Shown one piece after another: positions 3,412-52,102 of a DNA stretch of 64,000 bases. Source of the stretch: a virus. The first letter of the stretch is position 1, and the number at the start of each line of letters is the position of its first letter. The stretch lies in the IMG/VR virus record IMGVR_UViG_3300019458_000002, positions 1-64,000 of that record; one strand, given 5' to 3'. The position numbers and the translations under genes were made by a program. The notes beneath the pieces were generated by a model, which was given only the letters and a program-made list of their open reading frames with translations, was not told the origin of the DNA and did no database searches.

Positions 3412-3870
3412 ATGATGAACTTCTGTCCATACTGTGGAGACCGAATGAAGTTGGTTCAAATGGTCTACGAAAAATCTAATGTCGCTGGTATGGTTGTGGG
3501 TATGACCACTGAGGGCGTGGGTGGTGGCATTACAATGCAAATGAATGCAGTTGGGCATGCTTGTAGACCACCCAACATCATTGCTCAGGATTTTCCATTT
3601 TTGTGTGTAGCCATTGGTATGTTTGGAGTTTCCGCTCTCTCGCTTGCTCTAGGAGGACAACTAAGTCAGGCCAGCACCGTTTTGATGATGGGCCTCGGAT
3701 TTGTGTCTCTTGCACTTTATATCAAGGTTCCAAAGTATTCTAAAAAGGCCCTTGCAAGATATGAAGCTTGGGCCAGGCTTTCTTTGTGTGAAAGCTGTGG
3801 AGCAGTCGGAACCCCCGACAAAAAGACCCTTCATGTTTCCAACATTCAAGACTACCTGAGGAGCCTATGA
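3412..3870 (+). CDS. Membrane protein with N-terminal zinc ribbon
   Basis: 152 aa. CPYCGDRM near the N-terminus, followed by hydrophobic segments (FLCVAIGMFGVSALSLALGG; LMMGLGFVSLALYI) and a C-terminal CESCG. Confidence 0.6.
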   Translation: MMNFCPYCGDRMKLVQMVYEKSNVAGMVVGMTTEGVGGGITMQMNAVGHACRPPNIIAQDFPFLCVAIGMFGVSALSLALGGQLSQASTVLMMGLGFVSLALYIKVPKYSKKALARYEAWARLSLCESCGAVGTPDKKTLHVSNIQDYLRSL

Positions 3871-4061
3871 CCGATATAAACAAGCTCATTGACGGAATCG
3901 TAAATTCTATGGACGAAGAAGACCTAGAGTATCTTGCTATCAGGGTGAATGCTCGACTCTCTTTATCAACAGAGAAAGAATGCGTTGATTATGAAATTTT
4001 TTGTACATGCGGGCACTCATGGTGTCCCGCCTGCAAATTCTTTGGCCTAAAAGTCTATTGA
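3867..4061 (+). CDS. Small Cys-rich hypothetical protein
   Basis: 64 aa. ATGA overlap with the upstream stop. Contains CTCGHSWCPAC. Confidence 0.5.
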   Translation: MTDINKLIDGIVNSMDEEDLEYLAIRVNARLSLSTEKECVDYEIFCTCGHSWCPACKFFGLKVY

Positions 4062-4086
4062 CTTTCTTACTAAACTTAGTTATAGT
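4058..4086 (+). promoter_or_regulatory. Sigma70-like promoter
   Basis: TTGACT (4058-4063), 17-nt spacer, TATAGT (4081-4086). A hairpin AGCCCG-N9-CGGGCT lies in the leader. Confidence 0.55.
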
Positions 4087-4167
4087 TGAGGCTAGGACGT
4101 AGTGTCCAGCCCGTCGTGGTTTCGGGCTTATTACAAATCACGAAGTTCGTCGAAAGGAACGCTCGAA

Positions 4168-4770
4168 ATGGTAAATATACCTAAGATTGCAAAATTCAAA
4201 ACAGTTAAAACCTCTACAGGAAGCGATAGAGTAAAGATTTATCTTCCATATATGCCATGGAATTTTGGCAAAATATTCCCAGATGCTGTCTGGAACAAAG
4301 CCCCAGAAAAGTCTTGGGATGTAGACCTTAACATGAAGCCAGTTGTTGAAAAATTCCTAAAGGACCAGGGTTTCCATATTCTCCAGGACGAGGCACCGCT
4401 TGTCAAGAGTCCTGCTAAGGTTTCTACACCCATTGCGCCTGTCTCTGTTGTTGTCCCACCAAAAACAGTTCGTTTTTCATGGAAAAATAACCCTACAGCT
4501 AATTCCTTTCTAACAAAGGTAGCCCAGAATCTTGTTCCGCTATTTGACTACACCCCATCAGAAGAATTGGGTAAGGCCTTTTTAATTAGCTTCAATACAG
4601 AAACAAAAATGTCAGTACGACCAGGCCCGATTGCATCTGAACTTCATCGTCTTGCGAAGGAACTTGAAGAGGACCATAAGGGATGGAATAAAAACAAAGA
4701 TAACCTTGTCCTTGCAAGGCTTTTTAGAGTTTCTGCACAGGCATTGGCTTTACACAAAGACTCTGTCTAA
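4168..4770 (+). CDS. Hypothetical protein
   Basis: The ORF track starts at GTG 4102. I prefer the in-frame ATG at 4168 (MVNIPKIAKF...), preceded by AAGGAA. Confidence 0.55.
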   Translation: MVNIPKIAKFKTVKTSTGSDRVKIYLPYMPWNFGKIFPDAVWNKAPEKSWDVDLNMKPVVEKFLKDQGFHILQDEAPLVKSPAKVSTPIAPVSVVVPPKTVRFSWKNNPTANSFLTKVAQNLVPLFDYTPSEELGKAFLISFNTETKMSVRPGPIASELHRLAKELEEDHKGWNKNKDNLVLARLFRVSAQALALHKDSV

Positions 4771-4772
4771 TT

Positions 4773-5210
4773 ATGATATACGCTGAAGTTGGGACCTGGG
4801 AAGAGATGGCAATGGATGTGTGTGCCACCCTTACAAAAGGTGAAACAATCATAGGTCCCAACTTCAGCGTGTGCGCCTTTGATAAACCTAAAGACAGTAT
4901 TATAACACGAGGCACAGTAGACCTGGAGGACGGGCTCTACTGGATTGTTATTGACAATACAAATACAGTAACAGTATACATTGCCCATGACGCATGGAAT
5001 GCAGCAAATTTCTGGCACAAATTTGAAACCGGGGAAATGAAAGCCTTCGAGCAGACAATGGTTTGTCCTACCGACAAGCAACTTGCCGAAATAGACACGC
5101 ATTACTCAATGCAATATTACAAGCCAATGCTTGACAAGTGGTTGCTACAGGTGAGAAAGAAAGAACGGTTCCGCAGAGAAGCTAAAGCTAAAGAAGTCAA
5201 GAAAATTTAG
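4773..5210 (+). CDS. Hypothetical protein
   Basis: 145 aa, 2-nt gap from the upstream gene. Basic C-terminal tail (RKKERFRREAKAKEVKKI). Confidence 0.55.
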   Translation: MIYAEVGTWEEMAMDVCATLTKGETIIGPNFSVCAFDKPKDSIITRGTVDLEDGLYWIVIDNTNTVTVYIAHDAWNAANFWHKFETGEMKAFEQTMVCPTDKQLAEIDTHYSMQYYKPMLDKWLLQVRKKERFRREAKAKEVKKI

Positions 5211-5239
5211 CTATTACTCTGTAAAGGAATCCGAACTTT

Positions 5240-7236: not shown

Positions 7237-8340
7237 ATGGCACTTAAAGTACAAGAATTCCTCCGTAATGGAGGAACTTTAGAGCAGCTGGAGTCCCAGT
7301 ATGGGATTGTTGCCAAACGAGGCAAGTATCTGTGGCTTGTACTTCTAAAGTACGACATTGGCTCGCCCATGGGCGAAGAGATTGTACAGGAGTGTCGGGG
7401 GCTCATCCTTGATTCTGTCCGTAACTGGGACATCGTTTCATTCCCCTATAAGAAGTTCTTCAATCATGGGGAAGGGCATGCTGCTAAAATTGACTGGAAC
7501 ACTGCCAAAGTCTTTGAAAAGCTGGACGGAAGCCTATGTACGCTGTACTGGCACCAAAATGAATGGCATGTTTCGACCTCAGGAACTCCTGATGCCAACT
7601 GTCTAATTAACTACACAGAAAAGACATTTGCCATGCTTTTTTGGGAAGCCTGGGAGAAGATGGGTTACTGCAATCCAGACAACCTTCTTCGTGACCACTG
7701 CTATATGTTTGAGCTTTGTGCCAAAGAGAATCAGGTTGTAGTTCAGCACGATGAACTGCGTCTAGTTCTACATGGCATTAGAGAAATAGGACCAGAAAGC
7801 TGTTACTTAGAGATACCTATCGAAGGGTATTCTAACGTTTTTGAGCTAGCACAGACTTACTCTCTTACTTCCATGAAAGAGTGCCTTGATGCTGCAGAGC
7901 AATTTAATCCGATTCAGCATGAAGGGTTTGTTGTAGTCGATGGGAATTTCAACAGAGTTAAGGTGAAGGGCCTTAAATATGTGGCCCTGCACCACTTACG
8001 CTCTGACTTTAGTGAGCGTCGCATATTGGACCTTGTCCGCTTGGGCGAAGTTCCTGAAGTAGTGTCTTATTTCCCTGAAATGGGAGATAAGATTCAGGAA
8101 ATCAAAGGTAAGTACGAGCGAATCATTGAGGAGTGCGCATCTGAGTTTGAGCGTGCTTCAAAGGAAGCTGCATTCTCTATCACGGACGACTACAAAGTGC
8201 GCCGAAAGAAGTTTGCTGCAATTGCTGGGAAAAGCAAGTACCGCAGTGTACTCTTTGCAAAATACGATAACAGGGATATCAAGGATTTTGTTGACAACTT
8301 GCAAGTTGATGGTATACTGAACTGGATAAGGGATATGTAA
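7237..8340 (+). CDS. ATP-dependent RNA ligase (Rnl1/tRNA-ligase-like adenylyltransferase)
   Basis: 367 aa. Covalent nucleotidyltransferase motifs: I FEKLDGSL, IV HEGFVVVD, V RVKVKG. Confidence 0.7.
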   Translation: MALKVQEFLRNGGTLEQLESQYGIVAKRGKYLWLVLLKYDIGSPMGEEIVQECRGLILDSVRNWDIVSFPYKKFFNHGEGHAAKIDWNTAKVFEKLDGSLCTLYWHQNEWHVSTSGTPDANCLINYTEKTFAMLFWEAWEKMGYCNPDNLLRDHCYMFELCAKENQVVVQHDELRLVLHGIREIGPESCYLEIPIEGYSNVFELAQTYSLTSMKECLDAAEQFNPIQHEGFVVVDGNFNRVKVKGLKYVALHHLRSDFSERRILDLVRLGEVPEVVSYFPEMGDKIQEIKGKYERIIEECASEFERASKEAAFSITDDYKVRRKKFAAIAGKSKYRSVLFAKYDNRDIKDFVDNLQVDGILNWIRDM

Positions 8341-8343
8341 ATT

Positions 8344-8625
8344 ATGACCTCTAAAGATTTTTGTTACTGGTTACAGGGTTTCTTTGAATTGAGCGGAGGA
8401 GAAAAGCCGCTGACAGCACCACAGGTTAAGCAAATCAAGGCTCACCTCAACATGGTCTTCAAGCATGAAATTGACCCGTCATATGGAGATAAAGTCCATC
8501 AGGCCACTCTTCAAGAAATTCACGATGCCATTACAAAGAAAATAGAAGAGGCTCCAAAGCCCCCTAAGAAAGACCAGCCAGATTTTAAACATCCGTTTGA
8601 CCACGATATTCTAATTAGATGCTAA
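8344..8625 (+). CDS. Hypothetical protein
   Basis: 93 aa (FCYWLQGFFELSGG...), same-strand packing. Confidence 0.55.
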   Translation: MTSKDFCYWLQGFFELSGGEKPLTAPQVKQIKAHLNMVFKHEIDPSYGDKVHQATLQEIHDAITKKIEEAPKPPKKDQPDFKHPFDHDILIRC

Positions 8626-8636
8626 AGGAGAAACTA

Positions 8637-8864
8637 ATGGAAAAGAAAACTGCCGCAGAGGCCGCTGGTTCATTGCTAGGACTTATTTTTATGTCTCTTA
8701 TTTGGGCATTAGCTTTCAAGCTGGACGTAGAATTCTGGACTAATCATCTTGGACACTTCAGGCACGTCTCTATCCTTCCTGCGCTTCTAGCTGGTTTCCT
8801 TTTGCCTGGCAAGGTAATGTACTCGGCCTCAGCATTTACGCTGTGCTATTGGCTACTGACGTAG
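8637..8864 (+). CDS. Small membrane protein
   Basis: I prefer ATG 8637 (AAGGAG 7 nt upstream) over the track start at 8619. Two hydrophobic segments. Confidence 0.5.
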   Translation: MEKKTAAEAAGSLLGLIFMSLIWALAFKLDVEFWTNHLGHFRHVSILPALLAGFLLPGKVMYSASAFTLCYWLLT

Positions 8865-8871
8865 GTCTGCT

Positions 8872-9276
8872 ATGCCAGATAAATATAGTGCCCTGTCCTT
8901 CCGAATGAAGGGCAGATATGGGAAGGCTGTAGGTTGTGGAGCCTCACGTCGAGCCTTCAGGCACAAGAACATAATCATAAAGGTTCCTGTAAATGAAGCA
9001 GGAGTTTGGGATAACCAAAAAGAGGCGAGGGTCTATAGGGATTTTAAAAAGGGCTTAAAGCCATTTTATGTCCCTGCAGCATGCAAACTCATAGTTGACA
9101 AACAGTCTGGATTGCCCATATTATTCATGGAAAGACTTATTCCATTCAGGAGAACCTGGAACATAAGTAGGCTACCAGAATGGGTTAACGACCTTTGTGA
9201 TGCAGGACTCGATTTCTTTCAAGTAGGAAAGTCCTTAACTGGCGAAATTAAGTGCTACGATTACGCAATGGAATAG
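8872..9276 (+). CDS. Hypothetical protein (weak resemblance to a protein-kinase N-lobe)
   Basis: 134 aa. GCGASRRAF, IIIKV, QKEARVY and LFMERL are spaced like the G-loop, VAIK, helix-C Glu and hinge. No HRD/DFG motif, so the function is left open. Confidence 0.45.
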   Translation: MPDKYSALSFRMKGRYGKAVGCGASRRAFRHKNIIIKVPVNEAGVWDNQKEARVYRDFKKGLKPFYVPAACKLIVDKQSGLPILFMERLIPFRRTWNISRLPEWVNDLCDAGLDFFQVGKSLTGEIKCYDYAME

Positions 9277-9277
9277 T

Positions 9278-9928
9278 ATGAGATACAAATATCCAAGAAC
9301 CTTTCATTTCCCTACGTCGCCAGGTGCAGACAAAAGCGACAAGATTATGGAGGACACATCTGCCTTTGAGCCAAAGAAGGATGTCGTAGTTACTCTCAAG
9401 ATGGATGGAGAGAACACAACCCTTTATCATGACTATTGGCATGCCAGAAGCATGAACCAAAACCAGCATCTGTCCAGGAACTGGTTGGCTGCCTTTCATG
9501 CTTCCTGGCAACACCTTATCCCGCCTGAAGTGCGTATATGCGGAGAAAACCTATATGCTAAGCACTCAATCCACTACAAGAATCTTGCCTCGTATTTCCA
9601 AGTCTTTGGAATCTGGGAAGGCGATAAATGCTGGTCTTGGGAAGACACAAAGCAGTTCTGTCAAGACCTTAAACTAGAAACTGTACCAGTCGTTTCAGTG
9701 CAAAAATGGCAAGGGGAAACAGCAATGTATTGGCTATTTAAGGGTTTAGTTGAGACAGGATATTGCGAGGATGAGGTAGAGGGTCTGGTTGTTAGGTTGG
9801 CTGAGGAAATTCCTGTTGACAAATGGACCGCAAATGTGGGAAAATTCGTGAGGGAAAATCATGTCTCCACTGACCAACATTGGATGACAAAACCTGTAGT
9901 AAAAAACGGCCTGAAAATCAAGGAGTAG
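9278..9928 (+). CDS. RNA ligase family protein (minimal Rnl2/Rnl5-like nucleotidyltransferase)
   Basis: 216 aa. N-terminal YPRTFHFPTSPG, motif I LKMDGEN, motif IV VEGLVVRL, motif V GKFVRENH. Confidence 0.65.
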   Translation: MRYKYPRTFHFPTSPGADKSDKIMEDTSAFEPKKDVVVTLKMDGENTTLYHDYWHARSMNQNQHLSRNWLAAFHASWQHLIPPEVRICGENLYAKHSIHYKNLASYFQVFGIWEGDKCWSWEDTKQFCQDLKLETVPVVSVQKWQGETAMYWLFKGLVETGYCEDEVEGLVVRLAEEIPVDKWTANVGKFVRENHVSTDQHWMTKPVVKNGLKIKE

Positions 9929-9932
9929 GAAT

Positions 9933-10193
9933 ATGAGCAAAAAGCAAATCACCGTATGCATCACCGACAAAGACATTGACACCGGCAAGCCCCGCAGCCA
10001 GCGAGCCTGCCCAATCGCTAAGGCAGCAAAGCGCCATTCCAAGAATGGCAATGTTCGTGTTACGAATGACACTATTCTACTGAATGGCGTTCGTCATCCG
10101 CTGCCCCCAAAGGCTCAGGACTTTGTTGTCGATTTCGACAGCTATCGCTTCGTTTACCCATTCAAGTTCCACTTGCTCGTCAGCAAGAAGTAA
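9933..10193 (+). CDS. Small CP[IV]A-motif protein, paralog 1 of 4
   Basis: 86 aa: ITVCITDKDIDTGKPRSQRACPIAKAAKRH...PPKAQDFVVDFD...YPFKFHL. Confidence 0.6.
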   Translation: MSKKQITVCITDKDIDTGKPRSQRACPIAKAAKRHSKNGNVRVTNDTILLNGVRHPLPPKAQDFVVDFDSYRFVYPFKFHLLVSKK

Positions 10194-10195
10194 TT

Positions 10196-10456
10196 ATGAA
10201 GAAGCAAATTACTATCTGTGTGACTGCCAAAGACATCAGTTCTGGAAAGCAGGGTAGCTACACCAAGTGTCCTATTGCTTTGGCTGCTAAGCGCCATTCA
10301 AATGGAGGTAAGATACGAGTAGGATACAAGTTCCTGACACTCAATGGTCAGCAGGTTCAGCTTCCACCACTTGCTCAGGACTTTGTTACTTGGTTTGATA
10401 CAGGATATAACTACCTTGTACATCCTTTCAAGTTTCACGTAAGAATCGAGAAGTAA
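10196..10456 (+). CDS. Small CP[IV]A-motif protein, paralog 2 of 4
   Basis: 86 aa: ITICVTAKDISSGKQGSYTKCPIALAAKRH...PPLAQDFVTWFD...HPFKFHV. Confidence 0.6.
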   Translation: MKKQITICVTAKDISSGKQGSYTKCPIALAAKRHSNGGKIRVGYKFLTLNGQQVQLPPLAQDFVTWFDTGYNYLVHPFKFHVRIEK

Positions 10457-10458
10457 AC

Positions 10459-10722
10459 ATGTCAAAGAAAATTACCGTTACAGTAACGGCAAATGACATC
10501 AAGGCCTCTAAAAAGGCACTGAAGTCTGGTGAATGGCGCACCACCTGTTGCCCCGTAGCTCAGGCTCTACGGAGGCGATGGCCTGATGCTGGGGTGGGAA
10601 CTACTAACTTCACAAAGGGCTCTGGGCTCTATCAAAGCCTGCCAAAGAAGGCTATGGATTTCATCTATGATTATGACCAAGGGGTAGCAGTAAAACCATT
10701 CCGATTTACACTATGGGTCTAA
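10459..10722 (+). CDS. Small CP[IV]A-motif protein, paralog 3 of 4
   Basis: 87 aa: ITVTVTANDIKASK...CCPVAQALRRR...PKKAMDFIYDYD...KPFRFTL. Confidence 0.6.
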   Translation: MSKKITVTVTANDIKASKKALKSGEWRTTCCPVAQALRRRWPDAGVGTTNFTKGSGLYQSLPKKAMDFIYDYDQGVAVKPFRFTLWV

Positions 10723-11006
10723 TGTCTGAGAACACAACATATCAAAATGTAAAGCTCAACCCAATGGATTGGCACATTGGGTTGACTCCTACACAAATCT
10801 CTGTTAAGAGTGTACGTAGAAGTGATGGTCGTACAGTTACCAAGACCGTTGATTTCAAGGACACTGGTGTTTCTGATGCAACGGCAAATATGTGGTTACT
10901 TTTAGAAGAACTAGCTTCCACACTTTTGATGCCCTTTGACACAGTTACAATGCCTGATGGCAGAATGTATATGGCGCTCGTCCTGTTCCCGCATCCTGAG
11001 GCTTAA
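10722..11006 (+). CDS. Hypothetical protein
   Basis: ATG 10722 overlaps the upstream TAA (TAATG); the track start is 10713. Unrelated to the flanking paralogs. Confidence 0.5.
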   Translation: MSENTTYQNVKLNPMDWHIGLTPTQISVKSVRRSDGRTVTKTVDFKDTGVSDATANMWLLLEELASTLLMPFDTVTMPDGRMYMALVLFPHPEA

Positions 11007-11254
11007 TGAAAATTCAGGTCACACAAGAAGACATTGAAAAAGGAGTACGAAATGTATGCGCCTGGTGTCCTGTTGCGCGTGCAGCAACCAGGGCCTTTGG
11101 AAAGCCAATGAAAGCCATGCGCTGGCGCCTAGAAGATGTGGCTACTGGTGAGTGCATTGAAACTCCGAAAGAGGTTAGTCGCTGGATGTTTAAGTTCGAT
11201 GACCATCAGCCTGTGGAGCCTTTTGAATTTGAGGTGTCTGATGGACTGGTATAA
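11006..11254 (+). CDS. Small CP[IV]A-motif protein, paralog 4 of 4 (divergent)
   Basis: 82 aa: IQVTQEDIEKGVRNVCAWCPVARAATRA...PKEVSRWMFKFD...EPFEFEV. Confidence 0.55.
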   Translation: MKIQVTQEDIEKGVRNVCAWCPVARAATRAFGKPMKAMRWRLEDVATGECIETPKEVSRWMFKFDDHQPVEPFEFEVSDGLV

Positions 11255-12281
11255 AGGAAATTTGCTTTGGCTTCCAGAGCGTACAATATTTCTGACCAAG
11301 GCAGGTTCCCATGCCTATGGCACCAACATTGAAACCTCAGATATTGACTTACGAGGTGTTGCTATTCCACCCCGTGAATACTTCTTGGGTTTCCTAAAGC
11401 AATTTGAGCAAGCAGAAAGCAAAGACCCTTACGATGCCGTAGTCTACGACATCAGGAAGTTCTTCAAGCTCGCGTCTGCATGCAATCCAAACATCATAGA
11501 GCTTTTGTACTGTGACCCAATGGACTGGATGGTTCCAAATCCATTTAGTAGTGCATTGTCTCCATGGATTCTCATTCTTCAGCACCGAGACCTGTTTCTA
11601 TCTAAGAAGGCCAGATATACCTTCAGTGGATACGCAATGGCTCAGTTGAAGCGTATCAAGACCCATCGTAGATGGTTGCTTAATCCTCCAGCCAAAAAGC
11701 CAGACCGTTCTGACTTCGGACTTAGTCCACACAATGCCACTCTAAACAAAGAGGACATGGCATTGATTGAAAGTCAAATCAGGCGAGTTGAAGACACGCT
11801 AGGTGGCGAAGGTTTCACTAAGGACCGCGTTCAAGAGAACGATGACGAGATAGTGGTTCAGGTCGCAACCAAGCTGAACCTAGCCAAAGACCTTTTCCCT
11901 TTGATTATTGCAGAGCGTAAGTATAGGGCTGCCAGTCATGAGTGGGACCAGTACACAAAATGGAAAGAAGAACGTAACCCTGTCCGCTCTGCCCTAGAAG
12001 CAAAATATGGATATGACACAAAGCATGCTTCTCACCTTGTTCGGCTAATGCGTATGTGTACTGAAATCATGGAAAGTGGTGTCGTCCATGTTAAGCGGCC
12101 AGATGCAGAAGAACTAAAGGCTATTAGAGGGGGTAGCTGGACTTACGACCAGCTTATGGAATGGGCCACTGAGCAAGACACAAAGCTCAATGACACATAT
12201 CAAAAAAGCAGCTTGCGAAATAGTCCTGACCTTGATAAGATAGACGTACTACTAGTTTCAGTTGTTGAAAGATTTTTATGA
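11241..12281 (+). CDS. RlaP-like (RNA-repair-associated) Pol-beta superfamily nucleotidyltransferase
   Basis: I prefer ATG 11241 (MDWYKGNLLWLPERTIF); the track start at 11136 overlaps the upstream gene. Motif AGSHAYGTNIETSDIDLRGV gives the GS...DxD signature. Confidence 0.6.
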   Translation: MDWYKGNLLWLPERTIFLTKAGSHAYGTNIETSDIDLRGVAIPPREYFLGFLKQFEQAESKDPYDAVVYDIRKFFKLASACNPNIIELLYCDPMDWMVPNPFSSALSPWILILQHRDLFLSKKARYTFSGYAMAQLKRIKTHRRWLLNPPAKKPDRSDFGLSPHNATLNKEDMALIESQIRRVEDTLGGEGFTKDRVQENDDEIVVQVATKLNLAKDLFPLIIAERKYRAASHEWDQYTKWKEERNPVRSALEAKYGYDTKHASHLVRLMRMCTEIMESGVVHVKRPDAEELKAIRGGSWTYDQLMEWATEQDTKLNDTYQKSSLRNSPDLDKIDVLLVSVVERFL

Positions 12282-12460
12282 CCTGTAAAAGGTGTGGTCA
12301 AAAATACAAATCTTCTAAAGAAAAATGGAAGGACGATTTGAAGGATGTTTCAATTAGCACTCGAAGGACTATCAATTCTATAATAGATTTATTAGATGCA
12401 TTAGAAAAAGGTGGCCCACAAATGTGTGAAACATGCCACAATTTTGTGTTTTCAGAATAA
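12278..12460 (+). CDS. Small zinc-ribbon protein
   Basis: 60 aa. CKRCGQ ... CETCHNF. ATGA overlap with the upstream stop. Confidence 0.5.
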   Translation: MTCKRCGQKYKSSKEKWKDDLKDVSISTRRTINSIIDLLDALEKGGPQMCETCHNFVFSE

Positions 12461-12472
12461 GAAAGGGTACCA

Positions 12473-13618
12473 ATGCAAGACAATAAGTGGTGGAATAACA
12501 TCAATGCGCCAGCATACCACTCTGAAGGTGGATATCTGGACCAGGCATTTTCTGAAATGGCCCTCTCCTACGGGACATTGAAGGACGAAAACCTAACTCT
12601 TTACTCTCGTTCGTGTGAGGGTCCTCTAAAGGAAGAATTTATCAAGACCTTCTTGGCTTCCTTCGAAGCAAAGATGGCTGAGAAGGGCGGTCGTTTGTTG
12701 TATGATACGGTGTGGGGACGCAAAGTCGAAGGCAATAGCCGCGTCTACCTCATCAAAGACGGAATCTGCAATTTTCGTTTCGAAGACAATGCCTTTGATG
12801 TTCGTTTTTCTTCCTACGACAAGGACTGGATTGAGGAATTTTGCGCTTGGCTGAAGCCCCTTGTTGGAGCTAAGGTCAGTCATGGCAAGGCTTACGTGAT
12901 TGTGTCGGGTGTTGAAGGGCCTTCTCTGACTTCCATTGGTGTGGCATCCGTGAATTTTGAACCAGGCAACTACACAAAGGACGTAACAGATGGCTTTCGC
13001 CATGTCATCACAGACCTGAAGACCGTGACCCCTAGTGGACGAGTGGCCATTCTCGATGGAGAACCAGGAACAGGCAAGACCTTCCTTATTCGGTCTCTAC
13101 TCAAGGAAGTTCCTGATGCTATTTTCATCATGGTGGCTGCAGGAGCAATTGAAATGCTCACTTCTCCAAACTTGGTTCCTCTGTTGATTCGTACAAAGCG
13201 TGAGTCAACGGTCCCCATTGTCTTCGTAATTGAAGACGCCGATGCCTGTCTGGTGCCACGCGCAGCTGACAATGTCAACGCAATCAGTACGCTACTGAAC
13301 TTCTCTGACGGTATCCTGGGTTCGCTTCTGGATATTCGTATCATTGCCACCACCAATGCCAAAATCACAGAGATTGATAAGGCAATACTACGGCCAGGCC
13401 GCCTTAGCCGTCGCATCGATGTGTCTCGCCTGAATCCATCTCATGCAGTCGAAGTCTTCAAGCGTCTGACCGGCAAGGACCCTGAAGCTGGCCAGCTTGA
13501 TGCTAAGCGTGGGAATACTTTGGCTGAGATTTACTCTATGGCTCGCGATAACGGATACGTGCCTCCTGCGGCTAACAACAAAATCGGCTTCCACAACGAC
13601 TTCCCTGACTTCGACTAA
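12473..13618 (+). CDS. AAA+ ATPase
   Basis: 381 aa. Walker A GEPGTGKT, Walker B VFVIEDAD, sensor/Arg region RPGRLSRRIDV. Unassigned N-terminal domain of about 190 aa. Confidence 0.8.
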   Translation: MQDNKWWNNINAPAYHSEGGYLDQAFSEMALSYGTLKDENLTLYSRSCEGPLKEEFIKTFLASFEAKMAEKGGRLLYDTVWGRKVEGNSRVYLIKDGICNFRFEDNAFDVRFSSYDKDWIEEFCAWLKPLVGAKVSHGKAYVIVSGVEGPSLTSIGVASVNFEPGNYTKDVTDGFRHVITDLKTVTPSGRVAILDGEPGTGKTFLIRSLLKEVPDAIFIMVAAGAIEMLTSPNLVPLLIRTKRESTVPIVFVIEDADACLVPRAADNVNAISTLLNFSDGILGSLLDIRIIATTNAKITEIDKAILRPGRLSRRIDVSRLNPSHAVEVFKRLTGKDPEAGQLDAKRGNTLAEIYSMARDNGYVPPAANNKIGFHNDFPDFD

Positions 13619-13806
13619 TGGCAAGGGACCTTGTCCGCATTAGGAATGTCTGTCCAAAATGCGGAGCCCAGAGATTCCTACTCCACAAAAACTATGGAGA
13701 CACTTTAGAAGAGTGGAATGCTTACGTAAAAAGACAGAAGGAAAAGGAGCCTACACGTTACGCCTGCGACAGATGTACGAAGGTTCCGACTTATGATGAC
13801 GAATAA
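13618..13806 (+). CDS. Small zinc-ribbon protein
   Basis: 62 aa. CPKCGAQ ... CDRCTK. TAATG overlap. Confidence 0.5.
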   Translation: MARDLVRIRNVCPKCGAQRFLLHKNYGDTLEEWNAYVKRQKEKEPTRYACDRCTKVPTYDDE

Positions 13807-14191
13807 ACGCAAAATAGCTATTGTAGGCAGTCGTGACTTCGCCAAACTAGAACTGGTGGATGCGCTCATTTACAAACTGAACAAAGACGAGCACGAAATA
13901 GTGTCTGGAGGCGCAGTAGGAGTAGATACTCAGGCTCAGAACACAGCTATTCTAAATGGCTTTGAAGTTCAGATATTCTACCCAGACTGGAGCCAGGGCA
14001 AGGGTGCAGGTATTGCCCGAAATAGCGACATTGTGGCTTACGCTGACGATGTTTACGCCTTCTATGATGGCAAAAGCAGGGGCACGCTAGATAGCATGAG
14101 AAAGGCTGTAGCAGCAGGCAAGCTACGCCGGGTCTTCAACGAACATGAAGAAGCTAAAGATATTATTCCTAGCCCTGACCCTGTCGTGTGA
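13793..14191 (+). CDS. SLOG-superfamily (DUF2493/DprA-like Rossmann) protein
   Basis: 132 aa: IAIVGSRDF...IVSGGAVGVDTQAQ...GAGIARNSDIV. Confidence 0.55.
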   Translation: MMTNKRKIAIVGSRDFAKLELVDALIYKLNKDEHEIVSGGAVGVDTQAQNTAILNGFEVQIFYPDWSQGKGAGIARNSDIVAYADDVYAFYDGKSRGTLDSMRKAVAAGKLRRVFNEHEEAKDIIPSPDPVV

Positions 14192-15427: not shown

Positions 15428-16015
15428 TTATTCTCCTTTGCCCATTAGGGCCTTGATGTCATTTAGATAGGGGTCTTTGAATGCTTCCCCTGACTTTAGT
15501 TTATCATGAAACCCTTTGAAAGCCCTCTTGACAAGTCTCTTAAAGGGAAACATCCAAGCGTACTCGGGTCCAGTGAAATACGGAACAAGTTGATTTTCGA
15601 TGTACCAGTCATTGACATCGCTTGGGTTCTTAAGGTATGCTACCGTCATTGTGACGCAGTATGCCTGAAACTCAAACCAAGCTCGAAAAATTGCTGGCAA
15701 TGGTAGAAATGGAAGTAGGTACAGAAGCCCCATTAGCGCAGGAGTGAACTTCTTTGCCTGGATAGCGTGTCTACCCTCATGAAGTAGTGTTTCCCACTCC
15801 CAAGGCTCTCCTGCTGCGCCTATTGGCCTATAGGTAGTATACCCAAAGGTCGTGTAGAAGTTGGTCATGTAGCCTTTATTAAAAAACATAAGTTTTCCAA
15901 TTAGGCGCTGCAGCTTATTGTCGGCCTTGTTTTCGACGGTAAAGGCTGGAGCGTACTTACGAATCAGTTCAATAGCTTTGGCGTTCTTATCTACTACGGG
16001 CTTTGGCATTACCAT
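15428..16015 (-). CDS. Putative HExxH metallopeptidase-like protein
   Basis: 195 aa. LLHEGRHAIQ followed by a hydrophobic stretch (LMGLLYLLPFLPLPAIF). Confidence 0.5.
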   Translation of the reverse strand: MVMPKPVVDKNAKAIELIRKYAPAFTVENKADNKLQRLIGKLMFFNKGYMTNFYTTFGYTTYRPIGAAGEPWEWETLLHEGRHAIQAKKFTPALMGLLYLLPFLPLPAIFRAWFEFQAYCVTMTVAYLKNPSDVNDWYIENQLVPYFTGPEYAWMFPFKRLVKRAFKGFHDKLKSGEAFKDPYLNDIKALMGKGE

Positions 16016-18183: not shown

Positions 18184-18201
18184 CTACAGCTAAGATTGGA
18201 G

Positions 18202-18315
18202 TTGACCCGGAAGGAATCGAACCTTCAACCGCTAGAGTGTTTAATCTTGCTGTTGATATTCCATACGGAATACCGTTGGTTTATGTCTAATGCTCTACCA
18301 TTGAGCTACAGGTCA
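18202..18315 (-). tRNA. tRNA-scaffold gene (114 nt) with about 42 extra nt in the anticodon loop; anticodon unresolved
   Basis: TGACCTG-TA-GCTC-AATGGTA-GAGC-A-TTAGA-[49 nt, including hairpin GGTATTCC-GTAT-GGAATATC]-TCTAG-CGGTT-GAAGG-TTCGATT-CCTTC-CGGGTCA-A. Parsed by hand. Confidence 0.55.
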
Positions 18316-18324
18316 ATAAAATTG

Positions 18325-18394
18325 AGCCCCAGGCAGGAGTTGAACACTGCGACCTCCGGTTTATTTCCGGTGCTCTACGCTGAGCTACTGAGGC
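18325..18394 (-). tRNA. Compact tRNA-scaffold gene (70 nt) with non-canonical anticodon loop AAAUAAA
   Basis: GCCTCAG-TA-GCTC-AGCGTA-GAGC-ACCGG-AAATAAA-CCGGA-GGTC-GCAG(T)G-TTCAACT-CCTGC-CTGGGGC-T. No U33, and the D loop is only 6 nt. Confidence 0.5.
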
Positions 18395-18413
18395 TTAAGC
18401 TAGATTAGGATTG

Positions 18414-18519
18414 AGTCCTAGGTTGGATTCGAACCAACGCCCTTCAGCTAAAGGCTGACGCTCTACCTTTGTGGTTTTCATTAATCTAGAATCTTTGCCA
18501 CGGCCTGAGCTACTAGGAC
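18414..18519 (-). tRNA. tRNA-scaffold gene (106 nt) with about 35 extra nt in the D loop; anticodon unresolved (loop CUUUA)
   Basis: GTCCTAG-TA-GCTC-[43-nt D loop with GTGG...CCAC helix]-GAGC-G-TCAGC-CTTTA-GCTGA-AGGGC-GTTGG-TTCGAAT-CCAAC-CTAGGAC-T. Confidence 0.55.
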
Positions 18520-18523
18520 ATTG

Positions 18524-18644
18524 GCGGGGCAGAGAGACTTGCACTCTCGCATGGCGGCACCATTAGCATTATTTTGCTGGATGTATTCGTTAAACGGAAT
18601 ACAGTTTTTGCAAGCCGCTGCCGTACTATCTTGGCTATGCCCCG
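18524..18644 (-). tRNA. tRNA-Cys(GCA)-like gene (121 nt) with a 48-nt insertion directly 3' of the anticodon loop
   Basis: CGGGGCA-TA-GCCA-AGATAGTA-CGGC-A-GCGGC-TTGCAAA-[48 nt]-GCCGC-CATGC-GAGAG-TGCAAGT-CTCTC-TGCCCCG-C. The TTGCAAA loop is canonical for Cys. Confidence 0.6.
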
Positions 18645-18650
18645 CGTATT

Positions 18651-52015: not shown

Positions 52016-52102
52016 TCCCTGGTCATCTAGCGGAACAAGACCAAGTTCGGATACTAAATCCGTTTCCTTGGAACGTTGGTTCGAATCCAACCTAGGGAGC
52101 CA
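52016..52102 (+). tRNA. tRNA-scaffold gene (87 nt, CCA encoded) with an extended or interrupted anticodon arm; anticodon unresolved
   Basis: TCCCTGG-TCA-TCT-AGCGGAACA-AGA-CCAAG-TT-CGGAT-ACTAA-ATCCG-TTTC-CTTGG-AAC-GTTGG-TTCGAAT-CCAAC-CTAGGGA-G-CCA. Confidence 0.55.

Follow-up and report, generated by a model that had tools for sequence, protein, structure and literature searches.

To our knowledge, the transfer RNA (tRNA) genes of bacteria and their phages are thought to be interrupted solely by self-splicing group I introns, and enzyme-spliced tRNA introns are regarded as an archaeal and eukaryotic trait. Archaeal and eukaryal introns of the bulge-helix-bulge (BHB) type are 15-100 nucleotides (nt) long, lie in or near the anticodon arm at sites that include 29/30, and have their exons joined by a ligase (PMC4090602). 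Short introns that do not belong to group I, lie near the anticodon and are conserved between genomes have been reported as 'enigmatic' in tRNA genes of the Lak megaphages (Devoto et al. 2019, PMC6784885). Bacterial Y RNAs of the YrlA type combine a tRNA-like module with a protein-binding module; they are encoded beside a gene of the Ro60 family in the same orientation, several copies being common, and occur in phages too (Chen et al. 2014, PMC4201824). Finally, phage tRNAs with altered anticodon loops evade host anticodon nucleases (PMC10264068, PMC11555353), and phages can repair tRNAs by means of Rnl1, Pnkp and RlaP (PMC7824862). Here we describe a locus that bears on all of these systems, an array of four phage-encoded, tRNA-derived genes (U1 to U4) on the minus strand of IMG/VR virus record IMGVR_UViG_3300019458_000002, of which positions 1 to 64,000 were analysed (hereafter the window). 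U1 and U4 carry an element composed of a hairpin followed by the hexamer CAGCAA. Judging from sequence, we give an even chance to the reading in which this element is an intervening sequence that would have to be excised from the RNA before decoding and U4 is a split tRNA-His(GUG) gene.

The original prediction, made from the letters of the window alone, was of four tandem tRNA-scaffold genes of 114, 70, 106 and 121 nt. These are present, head to tail on the minus strand: U1 at 18202-18315, U2 at 18325-18394, U3 at 18414-18519 and U4 at 18524-18644, or 18524-18645 (122 nt) when an encoded G-1 is included. Acceptor stems are complete in all four units (7/7 base pairs, bp), D stems have 3-4 bp, and T stems have 5/5 bp in U1, U3 and U4 and 5 bp with a bulge in U2. 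The T arms cited for U1 (GAAGG-TTCGATT-CCTTC) and U3 (GTTGG-TTCGAAT-CCAAC) were recovered. Abnormalities are limited to the anticodon arm and, in U3, to the D loop as well: the halves of the anticodon stem enclose 49 nt in U1 and 55 nt in U4 instead of 7, and about 36 extra nt lie in the D loop of U3, so that the extra sequence sits where it had been claimed to sit. Two of the proposed checks were a search with the Rfam tRNA model RF00005 (gathering score 29 bits) and an ARAGORN search that allows introns. The former supports U1 (54.7 bits, the anticodon loop being aligned with a 48-nt gap) and U2 (39.8 bits), leaves U3 below the gathering score (25 bits, model positions 9-63 only) and does not match U4 as a precursor. 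The latter calls U1, U3 and U4, U2 appearing in ARAGORN only at a relaxed threshold and none of the four units in default mode. The features of a functional decoder (5-bp anticodon stem, 7-nt loop, U33 and purine 37) are missing from U1, U2 and U3, and U4 has them only after the loss of 48 nt. CCA is encoded by none of the units. CAAU directly follows the discriminator base in U2, U3 and U4, and CUCCAAU follows U1 (18198-18201, 18321-18324, 18410-18413 and 18520-18523, minus strand); this CAAU may be a common 3'-processing signal.

U4 can be read as an interrupted gene. Its anticodon stem is GCGGC/GCCGC, and deletion of 48 nt after G34 (18563-18610, minus strand) yields GCGGC-UUGUGGU-GCCGC with the anticodon GUG, the predicted exon junction being formed by GCGGCUUG and UGGUGCCGC. 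ARAGORN names the shortened sequence tRNA-His(GUG) and, with the -i option, describes the whole gene as a tRNA with a 48-nt intron. U4 also encodes G-1 (18645) paired with C73 (18524), and a G-1:C73 pair is the identity element of bacterial tRNA-His. The split-gene reading of U4 is strengthened by this agreement between the loop obtained by removal of 48 nt and the end of the acceptor stem. Its odd T loop, UGCAAGU, resembles the T loop of the tRNA-His of a related phage (L014). In the His register, the intervening element comprises an A-rich linker, a hairpin (18582-18603) with a 7-bp stem and an 8-nt loop, the spacer UC, CAGCAA (18574-18579) and an A/U-rich tail.

U1 carries a similar insert in a different setting. 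Its anticodon stem UUAGA/UCUAG is complete (5 bp) and encloses the 49 nt at 18237-18285. Within these, the hairpin-CAGCAA element (18244-18277, minus strand) is composed of an 8-bp hairpin with a GUAU loop (18255-18274), the spacer AA and CAGCAA (18247-18252). The U1 and U4 inserts have a common layout (A-rich linker, hairpin, 2 nt, CAGCAA, A/U-rich tail) and both hold the pattern GTATTCCGT..GAATA..CAGCAA, which matches twice in the window where 0 matches are expected. As this pattern is absent elsewhere in the window, the two inserts are homologous on sequence grounds. The exact pattern has no match in IMG/VR, and a scan of JGI metagenomes gave 33 matches against about 30 expected, the latter being a hand estimate based on a rough guess of the collection size. 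A role of the insert as a promoter on either strand was considered and rejected, since a consensus of the sigma-70 or Bacteroidota type is missing and the rest of the window shows no enrichment of the motif. The GGUAUUCCG likeness between the U1 and U4 inserts and a D-loop hairpin of a related phage (L007, see below) was judged coincidental, the sequence being part of a stem in one case and of a loop in the other.

The element belongs to a wider family. IMG/VR was scanned for tRNA bodies whose D and T arms are separated by 30-60 nt more than usual, which gave at least 120 loci, and all family counts below refer to the loci listed in that scan. At least 24 distinct phage tRNA genes show the layout of hairpin, 2-3-nt spacer and CAGCAA. 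The typical element has a stem of about 7 bp, a 4-nt loop starting in G, a 3-nt spacer and the hexamer, and it is always sense-oriented in the tRNA gene. The hairpins have a mean folding free energy of -6.8 kcal/mol compared with -1.2 kcal/mol for shuffled sequences (-5 kcal/mol or lower in 88% and 5% of cases, respectively). An alignment of 14 sequences, none of them from the window (A2, gap-poor and anchored on CAGCAA), shows covariation of the hairpin: 99% of the cells are paired, changes on both sides occur in 7/7 pairs, and 0/500 shuffles attain the observed values. Controls in which the alignment was slid reach 31-43% paired. The covariance model R1, built from A2 and therefore from IMG/VR sequences only, was used to search 128 kb; its best match in the window is the U1 insert (22.1 bits, E=0.002) and its second-best the U4 insert (13.9 bits, E=0.37), the lower score of the latter arising from its 8-nt loop, which is penalised. 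At the IMG/VR loci, R1 matches form arrays of 2-5 copies spaced 110-130 nt apart, which correspond to tandem tRNA-like genes of 113-138 nt. U1 shares its stem sequence and its GUAU hairpin loop with one of the members (L138). Rfam 15 holds no family for the element.

Hairpin-CAGCAA tRNA genes were also found in at least four GTDB genome contigs (L185, L222, L255 and L286) among the first 120 genome hits. Three lie in metagenome-assembled genomes (MAGs) of Lachnospiraceae, and the family is therefore not confined to contigs labelled viral. Other recurrent types of insert appeared in the same IMG/VR scan: a nested permuted tRNA-like module (L062, L093 and L096), a 'GAGACCAAAUAGUCCGUCGCAU' type (L077, L082 and L114) and a 'GGUUAUC/GGUUACU' type (L103, L117, L147 and L160) in phage tRNA genes. 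Inserts of the 'GGUUAUC' type, about 60 nt long and composed of a GC-rich hairpin followed by ..GGUUAUCG.., occur in tRNA genes of Kofleriaceae MAG contigs (L195, L205 and L251, one of which measures 222 kb). These insert-bearing genes may be cellular or belong to a prophage, and their inserts are too short for group I introns.

A restoration test was applied to each member of the family by trying every single contiguous deletion that leaves an anticodon arm of standard length. In 19 of the 24 members, one deletion of 40-54 nt restores a 5/5-bp anticodon stem and a loop with U33 and R37, and in most of these 19 the restoring register is unique. The deletion mostly begins after nt 28 or 29 (usual range 27-29), so that the 5' strand of the anticodon stem is usually the one interrupted. 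Restoration yields anticodons of ordinary kinds (Asn, Thr, Asp, Gln, Ile, Val, Arg, Ala and GCU). Between the element and the two junctions the spacing is variable (2-13 and 5-13 nt), so the tRNA helix, rather than the element, seems to set the junctions.

Compared with the Lak introns, as far as the published table was covered, the family is alike in that both interrupt phage tRNA genes near the anticodon with a short sequence not belonging to group I. However, the Lak inserts of that part of the table are longer (e.g. 93 nt, against 40-54 nt in the family), one of them contains tRNA-like sequence, CAGCAA does not occur in them, and neither a motif nor a protein partner is described there (PMC6784885). 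Within the same limits, the assignment of the U1 and U4 inserts to the Lak type was rejected, the two being distinct. The locus also recalls the nuclease-evading phage tRNAs and the tRNA repair systems, since here, too, one genome holds both non-canonical anticodon loops and genes for RNA ligases and RlaP. However, nuclease-evading tRNAs show point changes in 7-nt loops, whereas the loops described here are replaced, shortened or split by a module of 42-48 nt.

Clustering of the open reading frames (ORFs) of the family loci brought out a recurrent partner protein, which carries the domains DUF2828 and DUF7788 (PF11443 and PF25043) and a vWA MIDAS motif. Of 23 family loci, 11 carry its gene at a distance of 160-850 nt from an element and in the same orientation, whereas none of the 97 other loci of the scan has it (Fisher p=1e-9). 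The protein has at least 7,990 unnamed homologues and is weakly similar to the TROVE protein of Myxococcus phage Mx1. The three best PDB matches of its AlphaFold model are Ro60 structures, aligned over the full length with E=2e-5 to 1e-4, for a model whose confidence is low (pLDDT 65, shallow alignment). The linkage mirrors the arrangement of rsr and Y RNA genes (PMC4201824). Like YrlA (RF02553), the family joins a tRNA-like body to an additional module near a Ro60-like gene on the same strand. However, the tRNA-like module of YrlA is permuted, ends at the anticodon side and has no anticodon, while members of the family have normal tRNA topology and mostly a perfect anticodon arm. The motif and the protein differ as well, GNCGAAN0-1G and a PF05731 protein in YrlA as opposed to CAGCAA and PF11443/PF25043 in the family. 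A Ro60-like gene stands beside YrlA, whereas none was seen next to the cluster of the window. The best YrlA match in the cluster region, which spans two adjacent units, reaches 18.8 bits where the gathering score is 69. A YrlA-type permuted module made of the 3' half of U2 and the 5' half of U1 was considered and rejected, the strands being non-complementary and the Rfam score this low.

One further contig has elements in another context. L027, a giant-virus-like contig with EsV-1-7 repeats, an Rpb1 domain and a zf-CCCH domain, contains at least seven elements outside detectable tRNAs, and ARAGORN finds no tRNA in its element region. It was considered more than a coincidental match on account of its adjacent DUF2828 gene and its R1 matches, and it is the one contig with two exact matches to the U1/U4 motif in the JGI scan. 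The features at 1460-2320 and 3486-5216 (both minus strand) are intergenic hairpin-CAGCAA elements and GGUCGGUUAUCUAA repeats together with the neighbouring HNH endonuclease and DUF2828 genes.

The transcript of the array is probably cut by RNase P and RNase Z, CCA being added afterwards. If the element is an intervening sequence, decoding by U4 would require that the 48-nt element be taken out of the RNA between G34 and U35 and that the halves be joined, most likely by protein-dependent cutting or trimming followed by ligation. Candidate sealing enzymes are encoded by the phage itself: an Rnl1-type RNA ligase (7237-8340, PF09511, E=2e-18), an Rnl2-type RNA ligase (9278-9928, PF09414, E=2e-27) and an RlaP nucleotidyltransferase of the RNA-repair type (11136-12281, PF10127, E=3e-19), all on the plus strand. 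T4 Rnl2-type ligases prefer a nick in a duplex, and removal of a bulged insert from a stem would leave such a nick; the classic substrate of T4 Rnl1 is a break in the anticodon loop, as would arise in U4. The Ro60-like DUF2828/vWA protein of other phages would be a candidate reader of the hairpin-CAGCAA module. Extended to the family, this leads to a broader proposal that we hold tentatively and at less than even probability, namely a new class of phage tRNA introns of 40-55 nt, neither group I nor BHB, which would be cut and sealed by proteins and read by the Ro60-like DUF2828/vWA protein. The tRNA-His gene of the window would be one instance, served by the Rnl1, Rnl2 and RlaP of its phage. 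The ligase and RlaP genes form part of an RNA-repair gene cluster (7237-14191, plus strand) that further includes an AAA ATPase (12473-13618) and a DprA/SLOG-like protein (13793-14191).

The two remaining units have no hairpin-CAGCAA element. U2, the unit described as unsplit, is not a normal tRNA in its predicted fold: it is a 70-nt tRNA-like RNA with a 4-bp anticodon stem, an AAAUAAA loop that has no U33, and the bulged T stem. U3 is a 106-nt tRNA-like RNA with its extra nucleotides at 18468-18503 and an anticodon arm of 5 bp with the 5-nt loop CUUUA. Its extra sequence is barely structured (z=-0.2). Among 65 tRNAs of related phages, the closest match to U3 is located at L007 16647-16732, which has a hairpin at the same position of the D loop and a tiny anticodon arm, GCC-UUUU-GGC. 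The D and T stems of the two agree, while their acceptor stems differ by three double changes and one single change. A short way downstream of this relative follow a YrlA-like RNA (E=0.001) and a TROVE gene. D-loop hairpins are also present in tRNA-like genes of other phage tRNA arrays. With its D-loop insertion, its 5-nt anticodon loop and a relative of the same architecture beside a YrlA-like RNA and a TROVE gene, U3 looks like a tRNA-like non-coding RNA rather than a split tRNA. U1, in which an anticodon could not be recovered, U2 and U3 are most likely non-decoding tRNA-like RNAs. The claim of the original prediction that three of the units are split tRNA genes gains support for U4, fails for U1, where no single excision works, and does not suit U3. 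Comparison with homologous loci, which it had proposed, showed the compensatory acceptor changes of L007 for U3 and placed the inserts of U1 and U4 in the wider element family. The region L007 16640-18750 as a whole, with the U3-like RNA, a YrlA-type permuted RNA and further repeated motifs, all upstream of the TROVE-domain gene, looks like a phage Ro60/Y-RNA locus.

The principal alternative to a split gene is that the element is retained and the long RNA is itself the product. U1, U4 and their relatives would then be stable Y-RNA-like chimeras in which a tRNA-like body displays a module bound by a Ro60-like protein, as in YrlA/Rsr, and serves RNase P, RNase Z and CCA processing, stability or the recruitment of tRNA-binding proteins. 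This would account for the Ro60-like DUF2828 genes that adjoin element units of the same orientation, frequently arrays of 2-5 in tandem, and for Ro60 as the best structural match of the DUF2828 protein; YrlA provides a precedent (PMC4201824), and in L007 YrlA-like and U3-like RNAs precede a TROVE gene. Some of the evidence for retention weighs at the same time against an intervening sequence. In U1, all contiguous deletions were tried and none gives a loop with U33 and R37, and L138, L070a, L174 and L176a likewise have complete stems from which no canonical loop can be recovered. The elements of L027 lie outside tRNAs, so that an autonomous protein-binding RNA module fits them better than an intron. 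Other points that weaken the split-gene reading concern U4, where alternative deletion registers lead to Cys or Arg anticodons (although these mismatch C73), the R1 score is not significant alone, and the insertion site 34/35 departs from the family norm of 27-29. Beyond U4, no intron-less alleles were present among the loci retrieved, no endonuclease candidate for the excision was identified, and the confidence of the DUF2828 model is low. No DUF2828/DUF7788 or TROVE gene was detected by tblastn and profile HMM searches in the window together with L057 and L058 (about 81 kb of the 171.7-kb contig), which weighs against both readings. A retained element is also difficult to reconcile with the 19 of 24 members that preserve a perfect split stem, a canonical loop and an ordinary anticodon, which is hard to explain unless decoding matters, and with the recoverable anticodon of U4, which agrees with its acceptor identity. 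Moreover, the Rsr motif GNCGAAN0-1G is absent and the YrlA score remains far below the gathering score. We therefore regard chimeras of this kind as possible, though rather unlikely. The intron reading and the Y-RNA-like reading could be compatible, the element acting as a protein handle on the precursor.

Three further explanations appear much less probable. The units might be decaying pseudogenes, functionless remnants of the larger tRNA arrays of related phages, broken by insertions and deletions and possibly by a selfish DNA element. Related phages indeed have 3-28 normal tRNAs, compared with few in this phage, a usable anticodon loop is missing from three of the four units, and the extra sequence of U3 has hardly any structure. 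However, damage is seen only in anticodon arms and the D loop, while acceptor and T stems remain paired in all four units (the T stem of U2 with its bulge); the inserted element is a conserved, covarying RNA structure that is always in sense orientation; and the architecture of U3 is kept in L007 with compensatory acceptor changes. Decay is accordingly improbable. It would be yet more surprising if the element, alone or with the tRNA body, were a tiny self-processing RNA that cleaves or excises itself and whose ends are joined by a host RtcB-type ligase. Such an activity would agree with a strictly conserved single-stranded hexamer beside a hairpin, and a Pistol ribozyme in the tRNA region of L017 shows that small ribozymes occur in such arrays; yet no known ribozyme family matches at E<=10, the conserved part measures only about 30 nt, and the variable distances between element and junctions speak against a fixed catalytic geometry. 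The L017 match is located at 15726-15802, between the transfer-messenger RNA (tmRNA) and tRNA genes of that related phage (39.6 bits against a gathering score of 34.5). Archaeal/eukaryal-type introns cut by a BHB endonuclease, or group I introns, are extremely unlikely. Like BHB introns, the inserts are short and lie in or near the anticodon arm at non-canonical sites, their lengths are similar to those of archaeal introns, and ARAGORN can also place the U4 insert at the canonical position 37/38. However, the analogy with archaeal and eukaryal introns raised by the original prediction does not withstand examination. The BHB cannot form, the flanks of the insert being A/C-rich and unpaired. A 4-bp helix between two 3-nt bulges could not be drawn (by hand, rather than with a BHB scanner) for U1, U3, U4 and the 28/29 family members, and whenever a register yields a canonical loop, no pairing is possible between the 4 nt preceding the 5' site and the 4 nt preceding the 3' bulge. 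No EndA homologue is in view, the internal hairpin and hexamer are not features of BHB introns, the host is bacterial, and the genome is that of a phage related to Mx1. Group I introns, too, occur within bacterial and phage genes and are excised from the transcript, but those in bacterial tRNA anticodon loops (RF00028) usually exceed 200 nt and have a conserved catalytic core, P3-P8. With 40-54 nt in the family and 42-48 nt in U1 and U4, no core and no match to an intron or ribozyme family of Rfam at E<=10, the inserts are far too short, as had been predicted.

The window comes from a 171,731-bp metagenomic contig (ENA ERZ27251176 k141_894879) and carries genes of a contractile-tailed phage, including those for a tail sheath (phrog_279), a ClpP-like protease and NAD salvage. 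The nearest isolate is Myxococcus phage Mx1, with a tail-sheath identity of 45.6% and a similar genome size, and 15 relatives in IMG/VR share about 50% sheath identity. The cluster region has no match among INPHARED phages (blastn), the proteins neighbouring the cluster retrieve no relatives from IMG/VR, and comparison of the capsid protein with 5.8 billion proteins gave no close homologue. The cluster is flanked by a 90-amino-acid ORF and a 104/153-amino-acid ORF and lies upstream of the capsid gene. Its sequence is 100% identical in the ENA and Logan assemblies, two independent assemblies of one sample, and the cluster is therefore not an assembly artefact. In the surrounding 2 kb there is no terminator-like site, and promoter-like sites are found solely upstream and on the same strand, which makes it plausible that the cluster is co-transcribed with neighbouring genes. 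At 52016-52102 (plus strand) of the window, ARAGORN in intron mode predicts a tRNA-Pro(CGG) with a 14-nt intron, which has no Rfam match at the gathering score. The phage encodes a tmRNA (L058 6756-7118, minus strand, Rfam 84.5 bits) about 2.3-2.7 kb past the right end of the window, and a tmRNA stands beside tRNA arrays in Mx1 and most IMG/VR relatives as well. Related phages also carry tRNAs with the anticodon UUA (ochre-suppressor type) and G33 instead of U33 (L008 11795-11866 and L010 18527-18598), and one with a 6-nt anticodon loop (L017 14734-14805).

Short enigmatic introns in phage tRNAs have already been reported (PMC6784885). What appears to be new here is the motif, its usual position in the anticodon stem and the link to DUF2828, for which no description was found in Rfam or in full-text literature searches. 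Together these features suggest that bacterial viruses possess a type of tRNA intron, or of RNA-protein module, not described before. Such genes are overlooked by phage tRNA annotation pipelines, as the failure of default ARAGORN on all four units illustrates. If the inserts are retained, they would represent a new kind of Y-RNA-like particle and provide a first function for DUF2828. If they are excised, bacterial viruses would possess an unrecognised pathway of RNA splicing or repair, and the element may act as a switch that holds phage tRNAs inactive, or hidden from host anticodon nucleases, until phage enzymes act. Should the family prove to be a new class of introns, regulated tRNA splicing would be a phage-controlled step in bacteria.

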